NCBI GenBank assembly: GCA_035513275.1
Contig: DATKCJ010000187.1
Coordinates: forward strand, 1 to 23,540
Reading direction: 5' to 3'
Source: Opitutaceae bacterium
Lineage (GTDB): Bacteria > Verrucomicrobiota > Verrucomicrobiia > Opitutales > Opitutaceae
DNA: 23,540 nt
The first letter of the stretch is position 1, and each line of letters begins with the position of its first letter. A program made the position numbers and the translations under genes. Below are positions 4,646 through 17,443 of the stretch, in pieces. The notes below the pieces were generated by a model that was not told the DNA's origin, did no database searches, and saw only the letters and a program-made list of their open reading frames with translations.

Positions 4646-4915
4646 ATCACTGAACGTTCGGCAATAAGGGAGCGATACCGGCACTCATCTCTCACAAGGT
4701 AAAATGGTATTCTTGCTGCGAGATCGCGACGGGCTCGCGGACACGCTCGGACACAGCGATTTCGACTGTGAAGATTGGCCATCTGCGATCGCGAGCTGTC
4801 CAAGACGCCAAATTAGCGCGGCTACAGCGTGCGAGGACGCACTCTTCTAGGATGGGAGGCGCGCGGGTCGGACCTTTCGTCGCGAGCGGGATGCCGGCAG
4901 GGTTGCTTCACCCCG

Positions 4916-5971
4916 ATGTCCCGCGACTTGCTCGATCTCGCCTCGCAACGCCACCGCGTGCCGATTGCCGCCGACTTGGTGCTGCACAAGCACGCCGACG
5001 CGGATCAAATTATTCGAGACGGCGGCCGGCTCGGCGAAGTGGTGGCTGAGGCGGCGGAAGCTTTTCACACTCCCCTCGCCTTTCCCCTCATGGATCTGCG
5101 GCTGGAGAAGGCCGAGTTGCTCAACCACTTCGGCGTGGCGACGGACGACATCGAGAAATTCCACTTCGTTGTTCCGCCGACTCTCGAGCAGCGCCGCAAT
5201 TACGCCACGTTCGTGAAGCAGGTCGCGCCGAGCGAACGCGTCGCGGCTAACCTGGGCGCCGTGCACTCAATCCGGTCGCGGACAAAACTCGTTCCCGTGG
5301 GCATGTGCATCGGCCCCTACTCGCTCACGTCGAAGCTCATGGCGGATCCGATCACGCCGATCTACCTCGCAGGGATGGGCGTCACCGCCGAGGAGGAGCC
5401 GGAAGTCGCACTGCTGGAAGCGTGCATGGACATCAGCATCACCTGCGTGATGCACGAGGTTGAACTGGCTGTCGCAGCCGGGGCCAAGGCGATCTTCATC
5501 GCGGAGCCTGCGGCCAACCAGATCTTCTTCTCCCCGCTTCAACTGGCCGCCGGCAGCGACATCTTCGAACGCTGCGTGCTCGCGCCCAACCGGCGGATCG
5601 CAGCGCTCCTCGCCGACCGCGGCGTGGATTTGATCTTCCACTGCTGTGGCGAAATTACCGACGGGATGCTGGAAGGATTCTGCTCGCTGCGACCCGCGAT
5701 GCTGAGCCTCGGCAGCTCACGCAAGCTTTGGGATGTCGCGCCACTTGTGCCCAAGGACATCGTCCTCTACGGCAATCTTCCCTCGAAGATGTTTTACTCG
5801 GACCAGATGATGCCGCTCACGCGCGTCGCGGAGGACACCGCACGGCTCGCGGCACAGATGGAGGCAACCGGTCATCCGTTTATCCTCGGCACCGAGTGCG
5901 ACACCCTGCACGTGCCCGAATACGCCGCGACGATCTGCAAGAAAGTCGACTGCATGCTCACGGCGGCGTGA
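4916..5971 (+). CDS. Uroporphyrinogen decarboxylase (URO-D) superfamily protein, MtaA/CmuA-like methyltransferase fold, about 351 aa.
   Basis: Length and α/β-barrel pattern with FIAEPAANQIFFSPLQ, LIFHCCGEITDGMLE and ILGTECD are typical of the URO-D/MtaA family. The in-frame ATG at 4916 (MSRDLLDL...) is preferred over the ORF-track start at 4829 because the first 29 codons are atypical. Confidence 0.7.
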   Translation: MSRDLLDLASQRHRVPIAADLVLHKHADADQIIRDGGRLGEVVAEAAEAFHTPLAFPLMDLRLEKAELLNHFGVATDDIEKFHFVVPPTLEQRRNYATFVKQVAPSERVAANLGAVHSIRSRTKLVPVGMCIGPYSLTSKLMADPITPIYLAGMGVTAEEEPEVALLEACMDISITCVMHEVELAVAAGAKAIFIAEPAANQIFFSPLQLAAGSDIFERCVLAPNRRIAALLADRGVDLIFHCCGEITDGMLEGFCSLRPAMLSLGSSRKLWDVAPLVPKDIVLYGNLPSKMFYSDQMMPLTRVAEDTARLAAQMEATGHPFILGTECDTLHVPEYAATICKKVDCMLTAA

Positions 5972-6010
5972 GGCGGCGGCGCCGATTTCCGGTAGACGCC
6001 GTTCGCAAAA

Positions 6011-6028
6011 GCGGCAGGGGACTGCCGC
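6011..6028 (+). terminator. Stem-loop GCGGCAG-ggga-CTGCCGC after the URO-D-like gene.
   Basis: A 7-bp perfect stem lies 40 nt after the stop at 5971 in a convergent intergenic region. Confidence 0.3.
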
Positions 6029-6187
6029 ACTCCAAGACGCTGCCGCGACTGATTGAACGCCATGTGCAGAGCCGAAGGCCTTGGAGTGCGCCGCTCCTGT
6101 GGCGCTTTGCGGCCGGTCGCCATTTGCGCGTGGCTAAGATTGGGGTGAATCCCGCCAGAGAGTTTTCCGTGCTGACTACTTCTCGCC

Positions 6188-7750
6188 CTACCGCTCGAGC
6201 GTGACTTCCTTGCCCGAGGCGAGGCGGACCGTGAGCGTCGCGCCGGGACGGAACTGGAGTCCGCGATAGTCCTCGCCGGCAATCTGAGTGAGTTCAGAAA
6301 TGTATTTGGTCGGGCCGACGAGGTCGTCGTAGGTCGCAGACGTCTTGCCCGTCTCCATGAAGAACTGGTCCGCGGCGCCAGAGAGTTGCCGGAGGTTGTT
6401 GAGCACCGCCTTTTGCTGCGAGGTCTCCCGGACCTTGTTGAACGCGGGAATCGCCATCGCAGCAAGGAGCCCGACAGTGACGGGATTGTAGACGGCGAGT
6501 CCGGCCAGGTCCTGTTTCATCGAGCGGTTCCAATACGACTCGATCAGCAGCCCGTCCGGCAGGTTGCTTCTCACTGAGATCAGTGGCCTGTCCGTCTGGG
6601 GCAGTTGCCGCATGAACATGCCAATCGCCCGCGCCGACTCGGCGGGCAGTTGCGGATTCAGGCTCTCGAGGTCCGCGAGGCGCTTGAAAAACTTCGGACT
6701 TAGGTAGACGAGGCCGTTGCCCTCGCTCGGCACGTGCGTGAGCGCCGTCTGAAATTCCGGATTGCCGGAGAGCCGGTCCGTCGTCGCGCGGCATTCGCCG
6801 AGGAATTGCGGCGAACTTGCGATGAGCAGCGTCGACCCGTCGATGACGACGACAGGTTGAATGCCCTTCATCGGAAGCTGCTGCCGAAACTCGAAGATCT
6901 CCAGCGCACCTTCCTTGCGCACCGCGAAAAAGGGAAGCTGGGTAAGTGCATCCCTCACCGACGGCGCGATTCCGTCGATGGAGATCAGGAACGAGAATGC
7001 CGGCATCTTGAACTGCTGCGGTGTCGGCAACGTAATGTTTTCCTGCGGGTCGAGTCGCATCACGAACGCCATGTGCCCCTTCCAGCCTTGGACGATGCTC
7101 AGCACGGAGATCGCCGCGTTGCGTCCTGCATCCTTCAACGCCTGCTCGATCTTCCCGGAAGCTTCCTTGCCGGCCGTGATGTCGACGATCTGGAGAATCG
7201 TCGAGTAGACGACGGGCACGTCGACCTCGGTTTCGGCGAAGAAGTCCGCATCGGCTGGCGCGAGGTTGAGCCGCGCGAACGGGGCCGGCGGGCCGCCGAG
7301 TCCGGCGACCACTCCCCGCCGCTCACCGGGGATGTGGACATACATCCTATTCCTGAAAAATCCCGTGCCGTCGGGCACAGAACTGACACCGACCGCCTTG
7401 ATGCCGTCGAGACCGAGAGCAGTCACCAGCGCCGGGTAGTCCTGCTTGAGCGCCTTGGCGTTTGCCGGTTGTGCCTCGGCGAGCCCCGCCATGAACAACT
7501 CGATCTCCCGCGCGATCTTCATAACGTCGCCGTCGACGTCGGCGTAGCCATAGAGGGTTCCACCGACTTCGAGGTGCTTGTGCACAGCCATGAAGTGGCG
7601 GCTCCGCTCCTCTTGTTTCACCAAGGCGATCGCGTCCGACTTCGAAGAAGTCGAACCGGGCGCCGACCCGGTCGCCTCGTCTTTCTTGCCACAGCCCGCG
7701 CAAACGAGCATCGCCACGAGCATAGCACCGCAAGCCAGTCGGGTATTCAC
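6188..7750 (-). CDS. Secreted or lipoprotein hypothetical protein of about 520 aa. An N-terminal domain of roughly 400 aa has no recognised family. The C-terminal 110 aa are a type II secretion pseudopilin (GspG)-like module without a prepilin leader.
   Basis: The signal-like N-terminus is (V/M)NTRLACGAMLVAMLVCAGCGKKDE. Alternative starts are 7822, 7750 (GTG), 7723 and 7711. The C-terminal segment VGLLAAMAIPAFNKVRETSQQKAVLNNLRQLSGAADQFFMETGKTSATYDDLVG...GKEVTLER closely follows the pseudopilin α1-helix and αβ-loop consensus (LAAIAIPnF.kaRe.sq......nLRqi..a.eqy..e.g). The stop TAG at 6188-6190 was verified. Confidence 0.6.
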   Translation of the reverse strand: MNTRLACGAMLVAMLVCAGCGKKDEATGSAPGSTSSKSDAIALVKQEERSRHFMAVHKHLEVGGTLYGYADVDGDVMKIAREIELFMAGLAEAQPANAKALKQDYPALVTALGLDGIKAVGVSSVPDGTGFFRNRMYVHIPGERRGVVAGLGGPPAPFARLNLAPADADFFAETEVDVPVVYSTILQIVDITAGKEASGKIEQALKDAGRNAAISVLSIVQGWKGHMAFVMRLDPQENITLPTPQQFKMPAFSFLISIDGIAPSVRDALTQLPFFAVRKEGALEIFEFRQQLPMKGIQPVVVIDGSTLLIASSPQFLGECRATTDRLSGNPEFQTALTHVPSEGNGLVYLSPKFFKRLADLESLNPQLPAESARAIGMFMRQLPQTDRPLISVRSNLPDGLLIESYWNRSMKQDLAGLAVYNPVTVGLLAAMAIPAFNKVRETSQQKAVLNNLRQLSGAADQFFMETGKTSATYDDLVGPTKYISELTQIAGEDYRGLQFRPGATLTVRLASGKEVTLER

Positions 7751-7877
7751 AGTCCACAGATAGCGCAAATGGACGCCGCGCAGGAAGCCGATTCTTATGC
7801 GTGAGGCGCTCGGTTCCGACATTGACGTGATTTGTGTCCATTCGCGGTTGAGCGGACACGCTCGAGCCAGTCTCGCC

Positions 7878-8516
7878 TCAATCGCCCGACGGCTTCTCCG
7901 CGACGAGTATCATGCTCATCCAAAGCCACGGGAATCGTCCGGCGCCGATGAACTTCGTGACTCGGAAGCCCTCCTCCTCGAGGAGCCTTGTGAGTGTCGC
8001 ACGCGACCAAAGCTTGATGTGCCCGCCGTCCCAGAACGGCGAGAGGTGATCGTCCCACTTGTCTGTGAGTGAAAGCATGAGGTTCTTCAGGTAGCCGTGA
8101 TAAGGTGTGCTCACGATCAGGAGTCCACCCGGCCGAAGAACCTGTTTAGCGAACTGCGGCAAGTGTCGTGGCATGGCGAGGTGCTCCACGACTTCCGTGG
8201 AGACGACGATATCGAAGCCGCGCTCGCCCAGTAGCGTCGGATCATCGTCGACGCCGAGCTGCTTGAACGTCGCGCCCGGGACGGACTCCGAGGCGATCCG
8301 AATACCCTCGCCGCTCGGGTCGCAGCCCACCGCGCTGAATCCTGCGTGGGCGAGCTCGCGGCAGAACGCTCCGTTGCCGCAGCCGAGATCGAGCACCCGC
8401 TTCGCACCGAACTGCGCGCAAGCGGCGAGGATTGGCTTCCACAAGTAGTCGCTGGTGTGCGCGGCATCCGCCGAGCCGTAGTGATACTCGCCAGGTGTTG
8501 CGTTTGAGGTGTTCAA
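7878..8516 (-). CDS. Class I SAM-dependent methyltransferase, 212 aa, translationally coupled to bshA. It is a candidate NmbA-like N-methyltransferase.
   Basis: Motif I VLDLGCGNGAF, the acidic post-I loop and motif II/III DIVVSTEVVEHL are present. The start lies 8 nt after the bshA stop. Confidence 0.8.
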   Translation of the reverse strand: MNTSNATPGEYHYGSADAAHTSDYLWKPILAACAQFGAKRVLDLGCGNGAFCRELAHAGFSAVGCDPSGEGIRIASESVPGATFKQLGVDDDPTLLGERGFDIVVSTEVVEHLAMPRHLPQFAKQVLRPGGLLIVSTPYHGYLKNLMLSLTDKWDDHLSPFWDGGHIKLWSRATLTRLLEEEGFRVTKFIGAGRFPWLWMSMILVAEKPSGD

Positions 8517-8524
8517 GATGGTCC

Positions 8525-9657
8525 TCAGCCCGCACAGACTCGCCGGTAGATCGCCTCGTAGCGCGGCACGATCGCGGCCGCGGAGAACCGATCATGCGCG
8601 CGGACACGTGCGGCATCGCCGAGCGTCGCACGTCGCGCAGGATCGCGGAGAAGAGACTCGATTGCGGCGGCCATCGCGCCTGTGTCGGGAAACGGCACGA
8701 GCAATCCGTGCTCGCCGCTCGTCACGACCTCGGGAATCCCGCCGACGGCGAACGCCACACTGGGACATCCGACGCTCATCAGCTCGAGGATGCTCAGGCA
8801 AAAGCTCTCAACTTCCGATGTGAACAGGCCCGCGTCGGCCGCCGCGAGATAGCCTTCGATGTCACTCACCTTCTCGCGCACCACGATCCGGTCGGCCACG
8901 CCGCGCTTCGCGGCCTCGGCGAGCAGCGGCGCGGGATCGCCGCCGGCAAGCACGACGAGTTTGAAGGCAATCCGAGGCTCGAGCCGCGCCACCACGTCGA
9001 CAAGCAGGTCGAGCCGTTTGAGCGGGCGCAGGTTCGAGAGGTGCAGAATCATCGCCTCGCCGTCGGTGAGACCAAGCTCGGCGCGAATATCCGAGCGCGC
9101 GTGCTCCGCTTTGCGCGGCTCGAAGAAATTGTGGACGACGTCGATCGGACTCTTCACGCCGAGAAGCCGCTGCGTCTCGCGACGCAAGAACTCGGAGACG
9201 GTTGTAATCGCATCGGACTGCTCGAGCGCGTGCGCGATTGCCGGACCGTAGCCCGGATCGCGCCCGAGCAGCGTGGTATCGGTGCCGTGGAGCGTGGTGA
9301 TGATCTTGAGCCTTCGCTCGGCATGAAGCATTTCACGCGCAAGGATCGCTGCGGTCGCGTGCGGCACCGCGTAGTGCACGTGCAGCACGTCGAGTGCGTG
9401 ATCGCGGCTCACCTCGGCCATCTTCACAGAGAGCGGAAGCGTGTAGTCGGGATACTTGAAAAGGTCGTAGCTGTTCACCACCACCGGGTGGAAGAACACG
9501 TTCGCGCGCCGCGGCATCCGAAACGGCTGCTCGTAGCTGATGAAGTGAATCTCGTGCCCGCGCGCCGCAAGCTCGTCGCCCAGCTCTGACGCGAGGATCC
9601 CGCTGCCGCCGACGGACGGGTAGCAGGTGATGCCGATTTTTAGCGGGCGATCAGGCA
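8525..9657 (-). CDS. bshA: BshA, N-acetyl-α-D-glucosaminyl L-malate synthase (GT4 glycosyltransferase of bacillithiol biosynthesis), about 377 aa.
   Basis: The N-terminus MPDRPLKIGITCYPSVGGSGILASELGDELAARGHEIHFIS matches the BshA hallmark KIGITCYPSVGGSG. The protein aligns with Bacillus BshA along its whole length (TTLHGTD, GGIPEV). The ATG at 9657 is preferred over the GTG at 9679. Confidence 0.85.
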
Positions 9658-9672
9658 TGAGGAGCGAGGTCT

Positions 9673-9924
9673 TAGCCACAGATTACAAAGATGGGCACAG
9701 AGGAGAGGAGTCGGAGATTTACCACAAAGGCACAGATACACAAAGGGGCACTCGGGTTGTGATTTCCCAGTCGGATTCATTCAGTCGAAAGTAGCTGCCG
9801 ACGTGAAGAGGCAGATGAAACGGTGGCTGCCAAAAGACCTGCCTCGTTACCTCGGCAGCTACGGGACTTTTGCGTAATCGATTGCATCGTTCCGGCTCTG
9901 TGTCTCTGTGCCTCTGTGGTGAAC
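9673..9924. repeat. Inverted pair of YCTCTGTG-octamer repeat elements in the bshB-bshA intergenic gap.
   Basis: The forward copy CTCTGTGTCTCTGTGCCTCTGTGGTGAAC is at 9896-9924. Reverse-orientation copies are at 9718-9745 (reverse complement CCTTTGTGTATCTGTGCCTTTGTGGTAA) and 9673-9702. A near-identical copy is at 17496-17524. Confidence 0.5.
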
Positions 9925-9943: not shown

Positions 9944-10672
9944 TCAGAATTGTCGTGCGGAGCGGGAGGCCGCCGCGAGCGACGAGAAGACCAGCGCATC
10001 ATTCGGCCACAGAGGCTGCGCATGCCCTACCCCGGCGCGCAGGCCGCAGACGCGCGCGCGGGCGAGCTGAAGATCGACATACGCGCGCGTCTTGAGTTGC
10101 GAAGCATGTGCGAGCATCGCCTTCGTCCACCGGTCGAGCGCCCTGCGGGCGGAGATGTCGATGAACACGGGTTGCGTGGAGGGCTCGGCGTCCGGCGAGA
10201 CGGCGTAGAAGAAGAGCTGGCCGACGGCATGCGGACGCCGCGCTTTGAGCGGAGCGAGTCCGCCGTAGCGCGCAAGACGCGAAGCATCGCGCACGATCTG
10301 CGCCAGCCGCCAGTGATCGGGGTGCTGGTTTCCCTCGAGCGTGGGCGCGAGGACGGTCGAGGGGCGCAGCCGCCGGATGATCCCCGCGAGCTTCATCGAG
10401 TGCGCCGCCTTCACCTCGAGCTGAGCGTCGCCATCGAGCTCGATGAACTCGATTGTCGCGCCAAGGAGCTTCGCCGCACGCTCCGCCTCGGCGATGCGAA
10501 TCGCCGGCGTGCCGTTGCTGCCAGCTTCGCCGCGCGAGCAAACCACCATGTGAACCCGCCGCCCGCCGAGCACCTCGGCAGCGACGACGCCGCCGCATCC
10601 GAACTCGATGTCGTCCGGATGCGCACCGAAGACCAAGAGTGGCGGTAACAATGAAGGGGCAGACTTTTTCAT
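9944..10672 (-). CDS. bshB: LmbE/PIG-L family deacetylase, probably BshB (N-acetylglucosaminyl-malate deacetylase), 242 aa.
   Basis: The zinc-binding motif VFGAHPDDIEFGCGG is present together with the downstream HPDH motif. Assignment to BshB rather than a generic LmbE rests on placement between bshA and the BshC-like gene. Confidence 0.65.
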   Translation of the reverse strand: MKKSAPSLLPPLLVFGAHPDDIEFGCGGVVAAEVLGGRRVHMVVCSRGEAGSNGTPAIRIAEAERAAKLLGATIEFIELDGDAQLEVKAAHSMKLAGIIRRLRPSTVLAPTLEGNQHPDHWRLAQIVRDASRLARYGGLAPLKARRPHAVGQLFFYAVSPDAEPSTQPVFIDISARRALDRWTKAMLAHASQLKTRAYVDLQLARARVCGLRAGVGHAQPLWPNDALVFSSLAAASRSARQF

Positions 10673-13629: not shown

Positions 13630-16179
13630 TCATTCATGACCCAGCGAGATGAGGTTCGCGAAAAGCCGATACGCGCCTGGCACGCCGGCGGGGAGCTGCC
13701 TGAAGAACGCGAGACCTGTGTAGACGTAGTAGCCCTTCCCGTGGCGCGCGATCAGGACGCTGCTGTCCGGCTGTGTCTGCCCCGGATCGCTCATCGCCAG
13801 CAGAGCAGTGTAGCTCGCCTCGTCCCAAGTGCTCGGGAAATACGCACCGCGCTCCTGCACCCAGCCCTCGAAGTCGGCCTGGTTGATCTTGTTCGGCGTG
13901 TTGAGCGCGGGATGATCGGGTGCGAGGAAGTTCACGGGAGCCGTCTCGTCGGTCACTCGAAAGCGAGCGGCCTGGCCCTCGATCGAGAGCGGAAACGGCC
14001 CGAGTTGCGTCGCCTTCAGTCCGTTGGGCCGGTTGTATTGGGCAACGACCGTGCCGCCCGCCTCGACCCACGCGAGAAGGCCGGGGAAATTCGCCCCGAG
14101 GTCGTCGCGCTCGTTGAACGCGCGCACACCGATCACGACCGCGTCGAGCCCGGCGAGTCGCTCCAGCGTGAGATCGGCGCCGGTGAGCACGCGCACCGTG
14201 CATCCGAGTTGCTCGAGCGCCTCCAACGTGCTGTCGCCTGCACCCGGCAGGTAGCCAACATTTTTCGCCAGCGTGCGCGCGTCGCTGCTCACGAGTCGCG
14301 CAGCCGCCGGCGGTTGCAGCAACTGGACGGGAAGGTGATCGTAGCGCAGTTCAATCCTCTGCGTTGAGTATTCGCGGCTGTCGATCGTTGCGGTCGCTTT
14401 CAATTCGCCACTCGCAGCAGCCGCCGGCGCAGTCACATCGAACGAGAGACTCGCCTGCTCGCCCACGGCACGGGTCGCGAAATCGCGCGCTGCCGGGGTC
14501 ACCTTCCAGCCGACCGGCACATCGAGACGTAGCGTTCCGCGAAGATCCGCGCGCGCTGCAGATACCTCCACCCACACGGATTTCGTTCCGCCCGGCGGAA
14601 CAAGCAGCACCTCGGAGCCGATTCTCAAGGACGCCGGCGGAATGAACTTCAATTCGCTCCGCGCGTCGCCCGCCACAAAGACCGGCGTCTCCACCATCGC
14701 GAAGCGGCGACCGTCGATCTCAAACTCGAGCTCGACCTGAAGCACGGGGGGATTCTCCGGCAGCCCGATCATCGCGGCGTCGCTCACTTTCGCGATTCCG
14801 GCCGAGCCTTTCTCGCGCAACCAATATGGCTGCGTCAGAGGCGTGTCCGCTGGAATCACGAATGTGTCGCGCTCCATCCGCTCCGAAATGGGAATCGCGT
14901 CGGCGGCGTGGGTGCCGACTTGTTGTTCGTGGACGACTCGACCGTTCACGAGGTAGCGCACAGACGTTTGGCGGCCCGGAACCGGCGCCAGATTCCATTG
15001 ATGCCGCGTGACCGTGACTGATTCGCCCGGGACGATCTCGCCGCGTTCGACCGTCGCTTCGAGTCCGAGCCCGAGGCACGCGCGAAGGATGCTGTCGAGG
15101 GCGGCGCGACGGTCTGCGACGACGGAATCGTCAGGCAGGTCCGCCAGTTTCGCGCGAAGTTCAAGAAGCGCGGGCACGCTCGCGGCGGGCTCGGTGGCGT
15201 CGAAGCTTGCCGCGAGTTTCGCAACAAGTTCCTCGACCCCTGCGCCACCGGTGTAGCGCGTCCAACCCGTGTCGACACCGTCCATCAAGTCTGACTCTGC
15301 CGGCTCGCCCGCCATGAGCAGGAAGTTCTGTTCGTTGGCGCCGGTGCGCGCGCGGTCGACGAAGCCGCCGAGGCCTTGCGTCTTGTGCATCGCTCGGCTT
15401 TTCGCGGCGATCAGGCCAAACGACTCGCCCGTGACGGGGTCGGTGCCCGCGATGTCTTGCATGAAGACGGGTCCGTCGAGCGGCAGCGGAGCGTTGGGGT
15501 TGAAACGAAATGCGTTCCAGAGGACGCGCTTCGCCTGCCATGGCTTGAGGCCCTGCGCAATCTGCTCGGGATACGCCGTCGGGTCGGCTGATATCTTGAA
15601 GGCCTCGACCGCGAGGATGCCCGACGCAGTATGTTGGCCGTGACCGCCGCTGCCGGGAGGAATTGGGAAACGCGTGACGATCACGTCGGGACGGAACATG
15701 CGGATCACGCGCACCACGTCGGCGAGCACCTGCTCGCGATCCCAGAATTGCAGCGTTTCCTCGGGCGACTTCGAATAGCCGAAGTCGATCGCGCGCGTGA
15801 AGAACTGGCTCCCGCCGTCGAGCCGGCGCGCAGCGAGCAACTCTTGTGTGCGCAACACGCCGAGCTTCTCATCGAAGTCGCGGCCTAGTTCGTTCTGCCC
15901 GCCGTCCCCGCGCGTGAGCGAGAGATAACCGGCGCGAAACCCGCGGCCACGAGAGAGCCACGTGATCAGCTCGGTATTCTCATCGTCGGGGTGCGCGGCG
16001 ATGTGCAGCACCGTGCCGGTCGTCGCGAGCGCGCGCAGGTCGTGCTGGATCTGGATCCGCGCGGCGTCGCTGAGCACTTCGCGGACGACTGGCGGGCGTT
16101 TCTCCGCGATGTCGACCGGAGGCGGCGAGTCGGTCGCACTCGCGAGCGATGCAGTGAACGCGAACAAGCATGCGCTCAT
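13630..16179 (-). CDS. Secreted approximately 849-aa fusion protein: an N-terminal PIG-L/LmbE-family deacetylase domain plus a C-terminal ThuA/class-I-glutamine-amidotransferase-like domain.
   Basis: The signal peptide MSACLFAFTASLASA begins at the ATG at 16179 (verified). The deacetylase motif is LHIAAHPDDENTELITWL...TRGDGGQN. The C-terminal segment DAVVIGVRAFNERDDLGANFPGLLAWVEAGGTVVAQYNR follows a ThuA/DJ-1-like fold pattern. Confidence 0.75.
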   Translation of the reverse strand: MSACLFAFTASLASATDSPPPVDIAEKRPPVVREVLSDAARIQIQHDLRALATTGTVLHIAAHPDDENTELITWLSRGRGFRAGYLSLTRGDGGQNELGRDFDEKLGVLRTQELLAARRLDGGSQFFTRAIDFGYSKSPEETLQFWDREQVLADVVRVIRMFRPDVIVTRFPIPPGSGGHGQHTASGILAVEAFKISADPTAYPEQIAQGLKPWQAKRVLWNAFRFNPNAPLPLDGPVFMQDIAGTDPVTGESFGLIAAKSRAMHKTQGLGGFVDRARTGANEQNFLLMAGEPAESDLMDGVDTGWTRYTGGAGVEELVAKLAASFDATEPAASVPALLELRAKLADLPDDSVVADRRAALDSILRACLGLGLEATVERGEIVPGESVTVTRHQWNLAPVPGRQTSVRYLVNGRVVHEQQVGTHAADAIPISERMERDTFVIPADTPLTQPYWLREKGSAGIAKVSDAAMIGLPENPPVLQVELEFEIDGRRFAMVETPVFVAGDARSELKFIPPASLRIGSEVLLVPPGGTKSVWVEVSAARADLRGTLRLDVPVGWKVTPAARDFATRAVGEQASLSFDVTAPAAAASGELKATATIDSREYSTQRIELRYDHLPVQLLQPPAAARLVSSDARTLAKNVGYLPGAGDSTLEALEQLGCTVRVLTGADLTLERLAGLDAVVIGVRAFNERDDLGANFPGLLAWVEAGGTVVAQYNRPNGLKATQLGPFPLSIEGQAARFRVTDETAPVNFLAPDHPALNTPNKINQADFEGWVQERGAYFPSTWDEASYTALLAMSDPGQTQPDSSVLIARHGKGYYVYTGLAFFRQLPAGVPGAYRLFANLISLGHE

Positions 16180-16353
16180 TGCACGGGCGCGATTCGACCA
16201 CCGCGCTTTATCCAGATCAGCCGCGACTGCGCATTTCAAAGTTTCGATACGCAACAGTCGGGTCATTTGGGACATGGATAGCCGGAAGGCAGTCAAGCGG
16301 GTGGTTGCGCAACGTTGATTGTGGGTAAATGAATCGGAAACACGTGGATGCGA

Positions 16354-16396: not shown

Positions 16397-17272
16397 TTAC
16401 TTCAAACTGTCGATGAGCGCTTTGTTCAGGCGCGTGTATTCCGCCTTCAACTCGGCCGGGGTCTCCGCCGGGCTGTTCTTGATCAGCTCGAGCGATTCGT
16501 TGGCCGCGGCGAGCGCGCCGGCCTTGTCGCCCATCTTGGCGAGAATGAGGCCCTTTCTGTAGACCATCCACATCTGGCCGGGGCTGGCTGCGAGCGCGGC
16601 GTTCATCCACTCGAGCGACTTCTTCAGGTCGAGATTGTTCTCGTAGTAAAACATCGCTGACTGGAAATACGGCTTCTTCTCGGCATCCGACGCCATGACG
16701 GCCTCGATCTTGGAAACCAGCATGCCGGCGAGGTCGGTCTCAATCTTCACGGGAACGCGGGCGTTCTCCCACATCAGGTAGAGTATGGCCGAGCCCTCAG
16801 CCGAGAGATTTGAGACGCCGATCGAGAACGTCTCGATCGCGTTCGGAACCGCCGCGGGCTTGACGGTGACGCGGGCCACGTCGTTCGCCACGTTGTAGGC
16901 GTAGGAGCCCCACTGGCCGGTGACGTTGTTTAGGATGACGGTCCACTCGCCTTCACCCGGGATTGAGAAGAGCGCGTAGGTGCCCGCAGCCACGTCGGTC
17001 CCGCCGAACTTCACATCGGTGCTGAAGGTGACCTTCGTCGCCGAGTTGGCGCCGGTGCGCCACACTTCGCCGTAGGGCACGAGACCGCCGAAAATCTTCC
17101 GGCCGCGCATGCTGGGCCGCGAGTATTCGACGGAGATGTCGGTGATGCCGACCCGTTGTTTAAAAGTCGCGGCCGGGCTCGGCGCGGGAAACTCGATTTG
17201 GGGGGCTTGGGCAAAAAGGCCGGTGGCAAGCACCAGACCTGAAACAATAGTCAACACGGAGCGGGTGTTCAT
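16397..17272 (-). CDS. DUF2911-like periplasmic protein with a C-terminal TPR-like helical region, about 291 aa.
   Basis: The signal peptide is MNTRSVLTIVSGLVLATGLFAQAP, with the ATG at 17272 verified. The block RVGITDISVEYSRPSMRGRKIFGGLVPYGEVWRTGANSATKVTFSTDVKFGG resembles the DUF2911 core. The family name is recalled from memory and not certain. Confidence 0.6.
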   Translation of the reverse strand: MNTRSVLTIVSGLVLATGLFAQAPQIEFPAPSPAATFKQRVGITDISVEYSRPSMRGRKIFGGLVPYGEVWRTGANSATKVTFSTDVKFGGTDVAAGTYALFSIPGEGEWTVILNNVTGQWGSYAYNVANDVARVTVKPAAVPNAIETFSIGVSNLSAEGSAILYLMWENARVPVKIETDLAGMLVSKIEAVMASDAEKKPYFQSAMFYYENNLDLKKSLEWMNAALAASPGQMWMVYRKGLILAKMGDKAGALAAANESLELIKNSPAETPAELKAEYTRLNKALIDSLK

Positions 17273-17443
17273 GGCAGGCTCTAGAGAAACCAACACTTTC
17301 GCAAATTCCACTCAAATTCCGCAAAAGGTTGAAACGAGGCCACGAAGCCCTTGGTGCGCGGATGAACGGTCTCTGGCAGCCCGACGTTGGTCCGCCCATC
17401 GTTTGCGCTGCATGCACCTGGGCCCGTAGTAGAAGGAGTTGAA

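Follow-up and report, generated by a model that had tools for sequence, protein, structure and literature searches.

A predicted envelope lipoprotein family of Opitutales with a C-terminal pilin module whose prepilin signal has decayed

The window considered here is a stretch of 23,540 nucleotides from an Opitutaceae bacterium (contig DATKCJ010000187.1, assembly GCA_035513275.1), and the gene under study lies on its minus strand, where it encodes a large protein with a predicted lipoprotein signal at its N-terminus and a pilin-like module at its C-terminus. The open reading frame (ORF) is intact and uninterrupted (6188..7822, minus strand) and gives 544 aa when counted from the ATG at 7822, with in-frame alternative starts at GTG 7750 (520 aa) and ATG 7723 (511 aa). 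Translation from GTG 7750 yields the signal peptide MNTRLACGAMLVAMLVCAG followed directly by cysteine, in agreement with the median of 20 aa that precedes the cysteine in homologues, and the residue numbers used here are those of the 520-aa form unless stated otherwise. The parts of the gene and its neighbours are listed in Table 1.

Table 1. Parts of the studied gene and neighbouring genes in the window (AF2, AlphaFold2; pLDDT, predicted local distance difference test score)
Feature	Coordinates	Strand	Remarks
Whole gene	6188..7750	-	520-aa form from GTG 7750; stop codon 6188-6190
Predicted lipoprotein signal peptide, residues 1-20, MNTRLACGAMLVAMLVCAG/C	7691..7750	-	lipobox Cys20 codon 7691-7693
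Low-complexity tether after Cys20, residues 21-40	7631..7690	-	high column entropy; AF2 pLDDT <50
N-domain, residues 41-406, alpha/beta, ~13 strands, probable distant DUF3352 relative	6533..7630	-
Putative fossil prepilin leader, residues 407-413 (W-N-R-S-M-K-Q)	6512..6532	-	gap-free alignment to free prepilins
Degenerate alpha1-N, residues 414-426 (D-L-A-G-L-A-V-Y-N-P-V-T-V)	6473..6511	-	Phe1 to Asp, Glu5 to aliphatic
Conserved pilin helix, residues 427-468 (pilin 14-55), GLLAAMAIPAFNKVRETSQQKAVLNNLRQLSGAADQFFMETG	6347..6472	-	best conserved part of the whole protein
Mini pilin head, residues 469-520	6191..6346	-	short helix and small beta-sheet; conserved VGP, GE.Y and G motifs
S-adenosylmethionine (SAM) methyltransferase	7878-8516	-	between BshA and the studied gene
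BshA	8525-9679	-	398 bits vs cutoff 273.7
BshB1-like PIG-L deacetylase	9944-10672	-	127 bits, below cutoff 182.5
888-aa protein	13630-16296	-	PIG-L (Mca/MshB-like) deacetylase domain at residues ~97-264 only
DUF2911 protein	16397-17311	-	upstream of the 888-aa PIG-L protein, same strand
URO-D / MtaA-CmuA-like methyltransferase-fold gene	4829-5971	+	converging on the studied gene; well below every equivalog threshold

The likeness of the C-terminal ~110 aa to pilins, put forward in the original prediction from the letters of the sequence, was borne out both in sequence and in the predicted fold. NCBIfam profiles matched residues 448-496 of the 544-aa form (PilA_Myxo, E 3.6e-4; GspG, E 0.16), spanning profile positions 24-71 and 13-60 respectively, that is the helix part only, with the leaders excluded. 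A profile of the family compared with the PDB found almost exclusively type IV pilins and GspG (best 8tj2, E 1.2e-4), and the pilin matches lay in one register in which residue 425 corresponds to mature pilin residue 12. A chance resemblance was rejected, these comparisons confirming a likeness well beyond chance at the level of sequence. An AF2 model based on alignment A1 (97 full-length homologues of 48-84% identity) reached a pLDDT of 82.7 and a predicted template modelling score of 0.68, and was confident for residues 41-415 and ~441-520, not for the tether (1-38) or for 416-436, where pLDDT was below 50 and the stretch did not pack on the N-domain. One continuous helix was predicted at 423-467, after a break at 421-422 and ahead of a small beta-sheet, giving a module with an alpha1 helix of ~50 residues on an antiparallel beta-sheet head, as in type IV pilins. 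The narrower claim that the module follows the major pseudopilin GspG did not hold: the window protein scored 12 bits against TIGR01710 (GspG), where the cutoff is 88.85, and left PF08334 unmatched. No gene of a type II secretion system (T2SS) was found in the window or among the annotated neighbours at the fetched family loci. By these scores the module appears to be a generic mini type IV pilin and not specifically GspG.

Free-standing relatives of the module were sought with a chimeric probe, a canonical leader and alpha1-N grafted on the family consensus helix and head, because family members would otherwise swamp the searches with the module itself. The probe retrieved many free proteins of 112-118 aa with PF07963, over 96-100% of its length and at 54-67% identity, one of them annotated as a prepilin from an Opitutae metagenome-assembled genome (MAG); examples are MBI5382646.1 (P0353), P0270 and P0271. 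The free proteins pass TIGR02532 (IV_pilin_GFxxxE) with 29-33 bits (cutoff 16.3) and lie below every equivalog threshold, GspG included (42-48 bits, cutoff 88.85). They are colinear with the window module without a single gap, head included, at 43-51% identity. Like the fused module, they have the VGP…Y and …E.Y… head motifs and a leader of the form N-R-x-x-K; unlike it, they have a live K-G/F-T-L-V-E signal, a strongly hydrophobic alpha1-N, stand-alone tandem genes and no N-domain. Their genes lie at other places in the genome, grouped as tandem arrays of 2-4 copies, and no N-domain of the kind described below was found in the 6-kb flanks fetched around them.

Two such arrays (L084 9001-10320, with three copies, and L085 9001-13230) are followed by several genes without Pfam matches and then by PMT_2 / GT87-type membrane glycosyltransferases, which hint at pilin glycosylation or at a dedicated locus. 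In a 674-nt ENA contig (L088) the free prepilin P0271, with a canonical leader, occupies 25-366 behind an AT-rich upstream region with AGGAAG; its DNA shares 86% identity with an array copy of the free type. The N-terminus of an ABC-F protein follows 86 nt past P0271 (452-673) and shares 80-90% identity with the ABC-F encoded immediately after the fused gene in Opitutaceae. The contig may show this locus in a state without the fusion, either never fused or split again later, or it may be a chimeric assembly.

The alignment of fused and free copies places the free leader M-N-R-N-T-K-G (another aligned free leader being M-K-N-Q-N-R-G) against W407-N-R-S-L-K412-Q413, and the free F1-T-L-V-E5-I-M-I-V-V-V-I-I-G14 against D414-V-A-M-V418-A-V-Y-N-P-V-T-V-G427. 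The position of Gly(-1), residue 413, is Gln in 93 of the 97 homologues and Ala in one; the +1 position, residue 414, is Asp or Glu in 95, and +5 is V, L, I, A or M. K412, which corresponds to Lys(-2), is invariant, and the trace that remains of the leader is N-R-x-x-K (N-R-S-L-K in the family). Residues 6-13, where the pilin helix is most hydrophobic, have given way to a weaker stretch whose Y-N-P, a helix break, is conserved in 95-97 of the homologues, and the junction as a whole (…NLPDGILVRSYWNRSLKQD-VA..AVYNPVT.G…) is among the best-conserved parts of alignment A1, in which S410, K412, P423, G427, M432, A433 and P435 are invariant. Pfam and NCBIfam scans of the window protein gave no match to TIGR02532 or PF07963. 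On this alignment every residue that defines a class III signal has been replaced, with the leader persisting as a fossil, so that the module, described in the original prediction as leaderless, does lack the signal in function but is not strictly leaderless. The further claim that a prepilin peptidase does not process it is well supported, since a protein without Gly(-1) is no substrate for the enzyme; it follows from pilin biology that the module should not be open to such a cut. Fused variants with an apparently intact cleavage site (L104, L117, L134) were rejected after their junctions had been read, and all fused copies read share one degenerate junction. An in-frame Met had been thought to mark the start of the pilin segment. 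It falls at residue 411 (nt 6520-6518), where 70 of the 97 homologues have Leu, and it is therefore a coincidence and no start codon.

Pilin residues 14-24 are kept nearly perfectly and residues 1-13 are weakened, and for the helix a Kyte-Doolittle (KD) value of 1.66 (residues 415-438) compares with 2.9 in canonical pilins, a Wimley-White (WW) octanol value of about -3 with -7 to -8 in canonical pilins, and a naive Hessa-scale sum of +4.2 with -2 to -3 in true pilins, all with hand-entered scale values. Column entropy is lowest of the whole protein at residues 421-460 (0.43-0.60). When the 97 fused modules were compared with 92 free prepilins region by region, identity between fused and free copies was 0.15 over the leader and alpha1-N (0.68 among fused copies), 0.80 over helix residues 14-37 (0.80), 0.78 over residues 38-55 (0.83) and 0.35 over the head (0.54). 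The DNA of fused and free copies is only 72-82% identical over the helix, which points to purifying selection on the protein and not to recent gene conversion. The comparison shows helix residues 14-55 to be under strong selection that is shared with free pilins.

A lipoprotein-type signal had been proposed for the N-terminus, and the data agree: the lipobox +1 position (Cys20 in the window protein) is Cys in all 97 aligned homologues, -1 is G, A or S in 100%, -3 is mostly Leu (49/97), -2 is Ala, Gly or Ile, and +3 is Lys in 96/97. The window lipobox VCAG/C satisfies the pattern [LVI][ASTVI][GAS]C near the N-terminus. The protein is accordingly predicted to be an exported lipoprotein.

Between tether and junction lies the N-domain, of ~370 aa and 45 kDa, which was originally described as having no recognisable family. 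That description stands in so far as nothing matches above a family threshold, and fails in that a distant relationship to DUF3352 (PF11832) can be traced. The window protein itself is below the gathering threshold of that family (E 0.17, 10.9 bits, threshold 26.8). Pfam scans of selected members of alignment A1 gave several further sub-threshold matches in the C-terminal third of the profile (E 6e-4 to 0.17), the best Opitutaceae member reaching 18.9 bits, while a distant relative, P0212, passes with 33.1 bits. The relatedness of the window N-domain is therefore traced transitively, and the domain is probably a distant DUF3352 relative. This is its sole sequence link to a curated family. DUF3352 itself comprises uncharacterised proteins of ~540 aa, and a literature search found no paper mentioning DUF3352 or PF11832. 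No solved relative of the N-domain was found when the family profile was compared with PDB sequences. Its predicted fold weakly resembles periplasmic lipoprotein or lipid-binding alpha/beta domains, the nearest being Treponema pallidum TP0453 (3k8g), TiME, START, RseB/MucB and LpqN.

Proteins of this kind are widespread. A search of a 5.8-billion-protein collection gave 350 matches for the window protein; the best 120 were almost all of 505-540 aa, with 86-97% query coverage and ~50% identity, a few fragments or longer variants aside, and where these 120 carried names they were Opitutus, Opitutaceae and Didemnitutus. A profile search of 1.84 billion cluster representatives gave 463 proteins at E<=1e-30, and a scan of one genome per species found a relative in 491 reference genomes. 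The 79 reference loci that were fetched are mainly from Opitutaceae (Lacunisphaera, Oleiharenicola, Nibricoccus, Didemnitutus, Opitutus) and Puniceicoccaceae (Cerasicoccus, Coraliomargarita), and relatives of the N-domain also occur in Myxococcota. There is apparently one copy of the family gene per locus; tandem paralogues, suspected from clustering, were rejected. Public annotation calls the family either 'hypothetical' or 'type IV pilus assembly protein PilA', and the latter label is misleading. In one MAG (L061 5728-7442) the family gene is broken into two overlapping ORFs of 254 and 352 aa, most likely by a frameshift or sequencing error of that assembly.

The architecture and the junction are common to all homologues examined, so that of the two origins first considered a true domain fusion is the one upheld. 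Separate genes in orthologues had been named as the observation that would speak for an artefact, and no separate downstream prepilin gene was found at any family locus. Together with the free prepilins these comparisons show the gene to be an ancient and fixed fusion of an exported DUF3352-like lipoprotein with a small type IV prepilin whose family still exists free-standing in Opitutae, and they show a class III signal that was inactivated after the fusion.

Among more distant relatives the signal, the N-domain, an S-H-K-x-T-L-type junction and an AAVAIPAF-type helix are kept, and the part after the helix varies. A narrow helix hidden Markov model missed distant members, and its category counts are lower bounds. 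Some proteins have nothing after the helix, or short charged or Pro-rich tails; some have one to three tandem mini-heads; and others have a T2SSG-like head (P0212, near threshold for T2SSG, and P0241), PVC-type '…NN.RQ…DG[SR]V' heads, heads with a conserved Cys pair (P0201, P0208, P0242), TonB_C (E 1e-14) or TPRs (P0145). Further members of this variable set are P0143, P0149, P0231 and P0252, while P0212 has two tandem N-domains and P0266 has an LTD domain and lacks the helix. The mini pilin head, of ~75 aa, is repeated two or three times with Pro/Ala/Gly-rich linkers in P0080, P0082, P0087 and P0117, at L098/L099 (ORF 4729-6873) and at L134 (ORF 4699-6651). In these multi-head members the hydrophobic helix precedes the first copy only, which marks the head as an autonomous, duplicable domain.

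A scan for promoters and terminators around the gene gave nothing informative. In the window the studied gene is indeed the last of a string of bsh genes, as originally described, and a sodium:solute symporter also precedes it on the same strand; the window showed no BshC. The bsh neighbours are absent at loci in other genomes, so the linkage is incidental, and a functional link to bacillithiol synthesis was rejected since the association is not conserved. Other Opitutaceae have a divergent WecG-type transferase and a downstream ABC-F gene as neighbours, and the Myxococcota loci have unrelated housekeeping genes. Across the 79 reference loci and 79 metagenome loci sampled there was vertical synteny only (WecG / target / ABC-F) and no functional partner. 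At three loci from distant Opitutales / Puniceicoccaceae (L070, L071, L073) TamA (Omp85 and POTRA) and TamB directly adjoin the family gene on the opposite strand, and this adjacency, at three loci only, faintly suggests that the family is connected with envelope biogenesis.

The reading we favour, with a probability of roughly 0.55, is that the protein carries a non-cleavable, non-polymerising pilin module on a periplasmic lipoprotein and contacts cognate pilins or the membrane through it. The protein would be exported by Sec and lipidated at Cys20, and the weakened helix would not arrest translocation, leaving the pilin module in the periplasm with the N-domain as a non-polymerising pilin mimic. 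Helix residues 14-55 would then contact cognate free mini-pilins, in the membrane pool or in a filament, or the membrane surface, or both, and such contacts would tether the DUF3352-like domain at the contact site. In type IV filaments the core encloses alpha1-N, which is directed towards the membrane, and a 45-kDa domain on the N-terminus of the helix would allow no internal position in a pilus core. A periplasmic location of the module is probable because the helix is about half as hydrophobic as a real alpha1-N, because it is precisely the anchoring segment of true pilins that has been substituted, and because the recognisable domains found in place of the head in relatives belong without exception to extracytoplasmic types. 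A role of the helix in contacts is suggested by the stretch 416-436 that AF2 leaves unpacked and by a conservation far tighter than that of a generic anchor.

Several points weigh against this reading. None of ~90 family loci has a pilus, T2SS or free-prepilin gene in its vicinity. The conservation of alpha1-C could reflect intramolecular packing on the tiny head and not an intermolecular interface. Residues 415-438 are 24 uncharged residues, a borderline membrane span by KD, followed by Lys/Arg, and some distant relatives end within or just past the helix in the manner of C-terminal membrane anchors. The hydrophobicity comparisons, finally, depend on hand-entered scale values.

The main rival, less likely though possible, is that the helix acts as a stop-transfer anchor, with the lipidated N-domain in the periplasm, residues ~415-437 spanning the inner membrane outside-to-inside and the head in the cytoplasm; the module would then be the remnant of a pilin in inverted topology, retained chiefly for C-terminal anchoring or else with a new cytoplasmic role. 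The uncharged stretch has the same KD value as the signal peptide and the Lys/Arg residues come directly after it (QKVR…K), P0230 and P0257 end inside the helix, P0189, P0191, P0213 and P0216 have short charged tails only, and P0145 has its TPRs past the helix. Relatives with short tails are slightly more hydrophobic (-3.8 vs -3.0), and a comparison of the helices of head-less relatives with the others showed no clear difference in hydrophobicity. A cytoplasmic head is hard to reconcile with its strong conservation, its tandem duplication in some relatives and its continuing homology to periplasmic pilin heads, and the TonB_C, T2SSG-type and Cys-pair heads that replace it are all extracytoplasmic types. 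The residues of alpha1-N that would make a strong anchor have also been swapped for Y-N-P and T, and the naive Hessa-scale sum has the opposite sign to that of true pilins.

The module might instead be a basal stopper or anchor subunit, which would keep the lateral interface of free pilins (helix 14-55 and head) without the core segment and the processing site. The sole place open to it in a filament would be that of the last subunit, on the membrane side, where it would end growth and tie the fibre to the lipid-anchored DUF3352-like domain, with no need of a prepilin peptidase. The geometry of type IV filaments is in favour, as an N-terminal extension excludes every position except the base, and so are helix residues 14-55, whose similarity to free pilins equals that among the fused copies; the free pilins are moreover so small that alpha1-C should belong to the subunit interface. 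Such a role looks unlikely, since the inference is purely geometric, the gene does not co-localise with pilus genes, and relatives with TonB_C, TPRs or no head could not work in this way. Release of the module by a periplasmic protease near the junction, after which it would serve as an ordinary pilin with the N-domain as pro-domain or chaperone, is very improbable. The junction motif (S-x-K, N-R-S-L-K-Q-D) is invariant and the fold class of the N-domain often binds hydrophobic ligands, but the freed peptide would have neither Phe1 and Glu5 nor the hydrophobic residues 1-13, on which residence in the membrane and packing in the core depend, no protease gene is linked at the loci analysed, and relatives without any head retain the junction. 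That the fusion is an artefact of the window, as the original prediction had allowed, by frameshift, lost stop or mis-assembly of a lipoprotein gene and a prepilin gene, is scarcely credible even though free prepilins with a closely related head exist and that of L088 takes the usual place of the fused gene's 3'-end just upstream of the same ABC-F gene, as the continuous ORF and junction recur in hundreds of independent assemblies, complete chromosomes included, the window junction matches those of other assemblies residue for residue, the junction is kept at the protein level in all homologues examined, and its residues differ systematically from a prepilin leader.

The wider interest of the family is that a pilin can evidently be captured as an internal domain, which reverses a rule of pilin architecture. 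Its signal has been taken apart specifically, through loss of Gly(-1), of Phe1, of Glu5 and of the core segment with its hydrophobic residues, and the rest of the pilin helix is still under selection as tight as in free pilins. The family may thus serve as a natural experiment that sets the parts of the pilin helix used for membrane anchoring and core packing against the parts used for other contacts. It also flags a large uncharacterised family of predicted envelope lipoproteins, in at least 491 reference species genomes, which joins interchangeable and probably periplasmic heads (mini-pilin x1-3, T2SSG-like, PVC-type, TonB_C, TPR) to one conserved junction. A literature search on pilins, lipoproteins and Verrucomicrobia found no paper describing this architecture.

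Known systems offer partial parallels. GspG (EpsG 4lw9, PulG 5wda; TIGR01710, PF08334) differs in that the module is without a leader or gsp operon and has a head of about half the size. In the split pilin of Geobacter, PilA-N/PilA-C, as in the present gene, pilin helix and head modules have been rearranged at the gene level; PilA-N was among the PDB profile matches as 'Geopilin domain 1'. The Geobacter case is a fission after which the helix part retains the class III signal, whereas the present gene is a fusion in which that signal is destroyed. Modular type IV pilins such as PilB/PilC of Streptococcus sanguinis have an N-terminal pilin module with the IPR012902 motif and then an extra functional module (PMC8179133). 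Like them, the fused protein combines a small pilin module with a bulky non-pilin module in one polypeptide; unlike them, it has the reverse order, no IPR012902 motif, a dead signal and predicted export by a lipoprotein signal. Catalogues of modular pilins are built on the N-terminal motif, and C-terminal pilin modules are invisible to such searches. Judged by its sequence, the protein appears to fall outside type IV pilins, GspG, DUF3352 (by score) and modular pilins as each is defined, and it is positive for the pilin fold, for homology to prepilins and for a lipoprotein signal. Its closest relatives are the free mini-prepilins of Opitutae, and the closest concept is that of the modular pilin.

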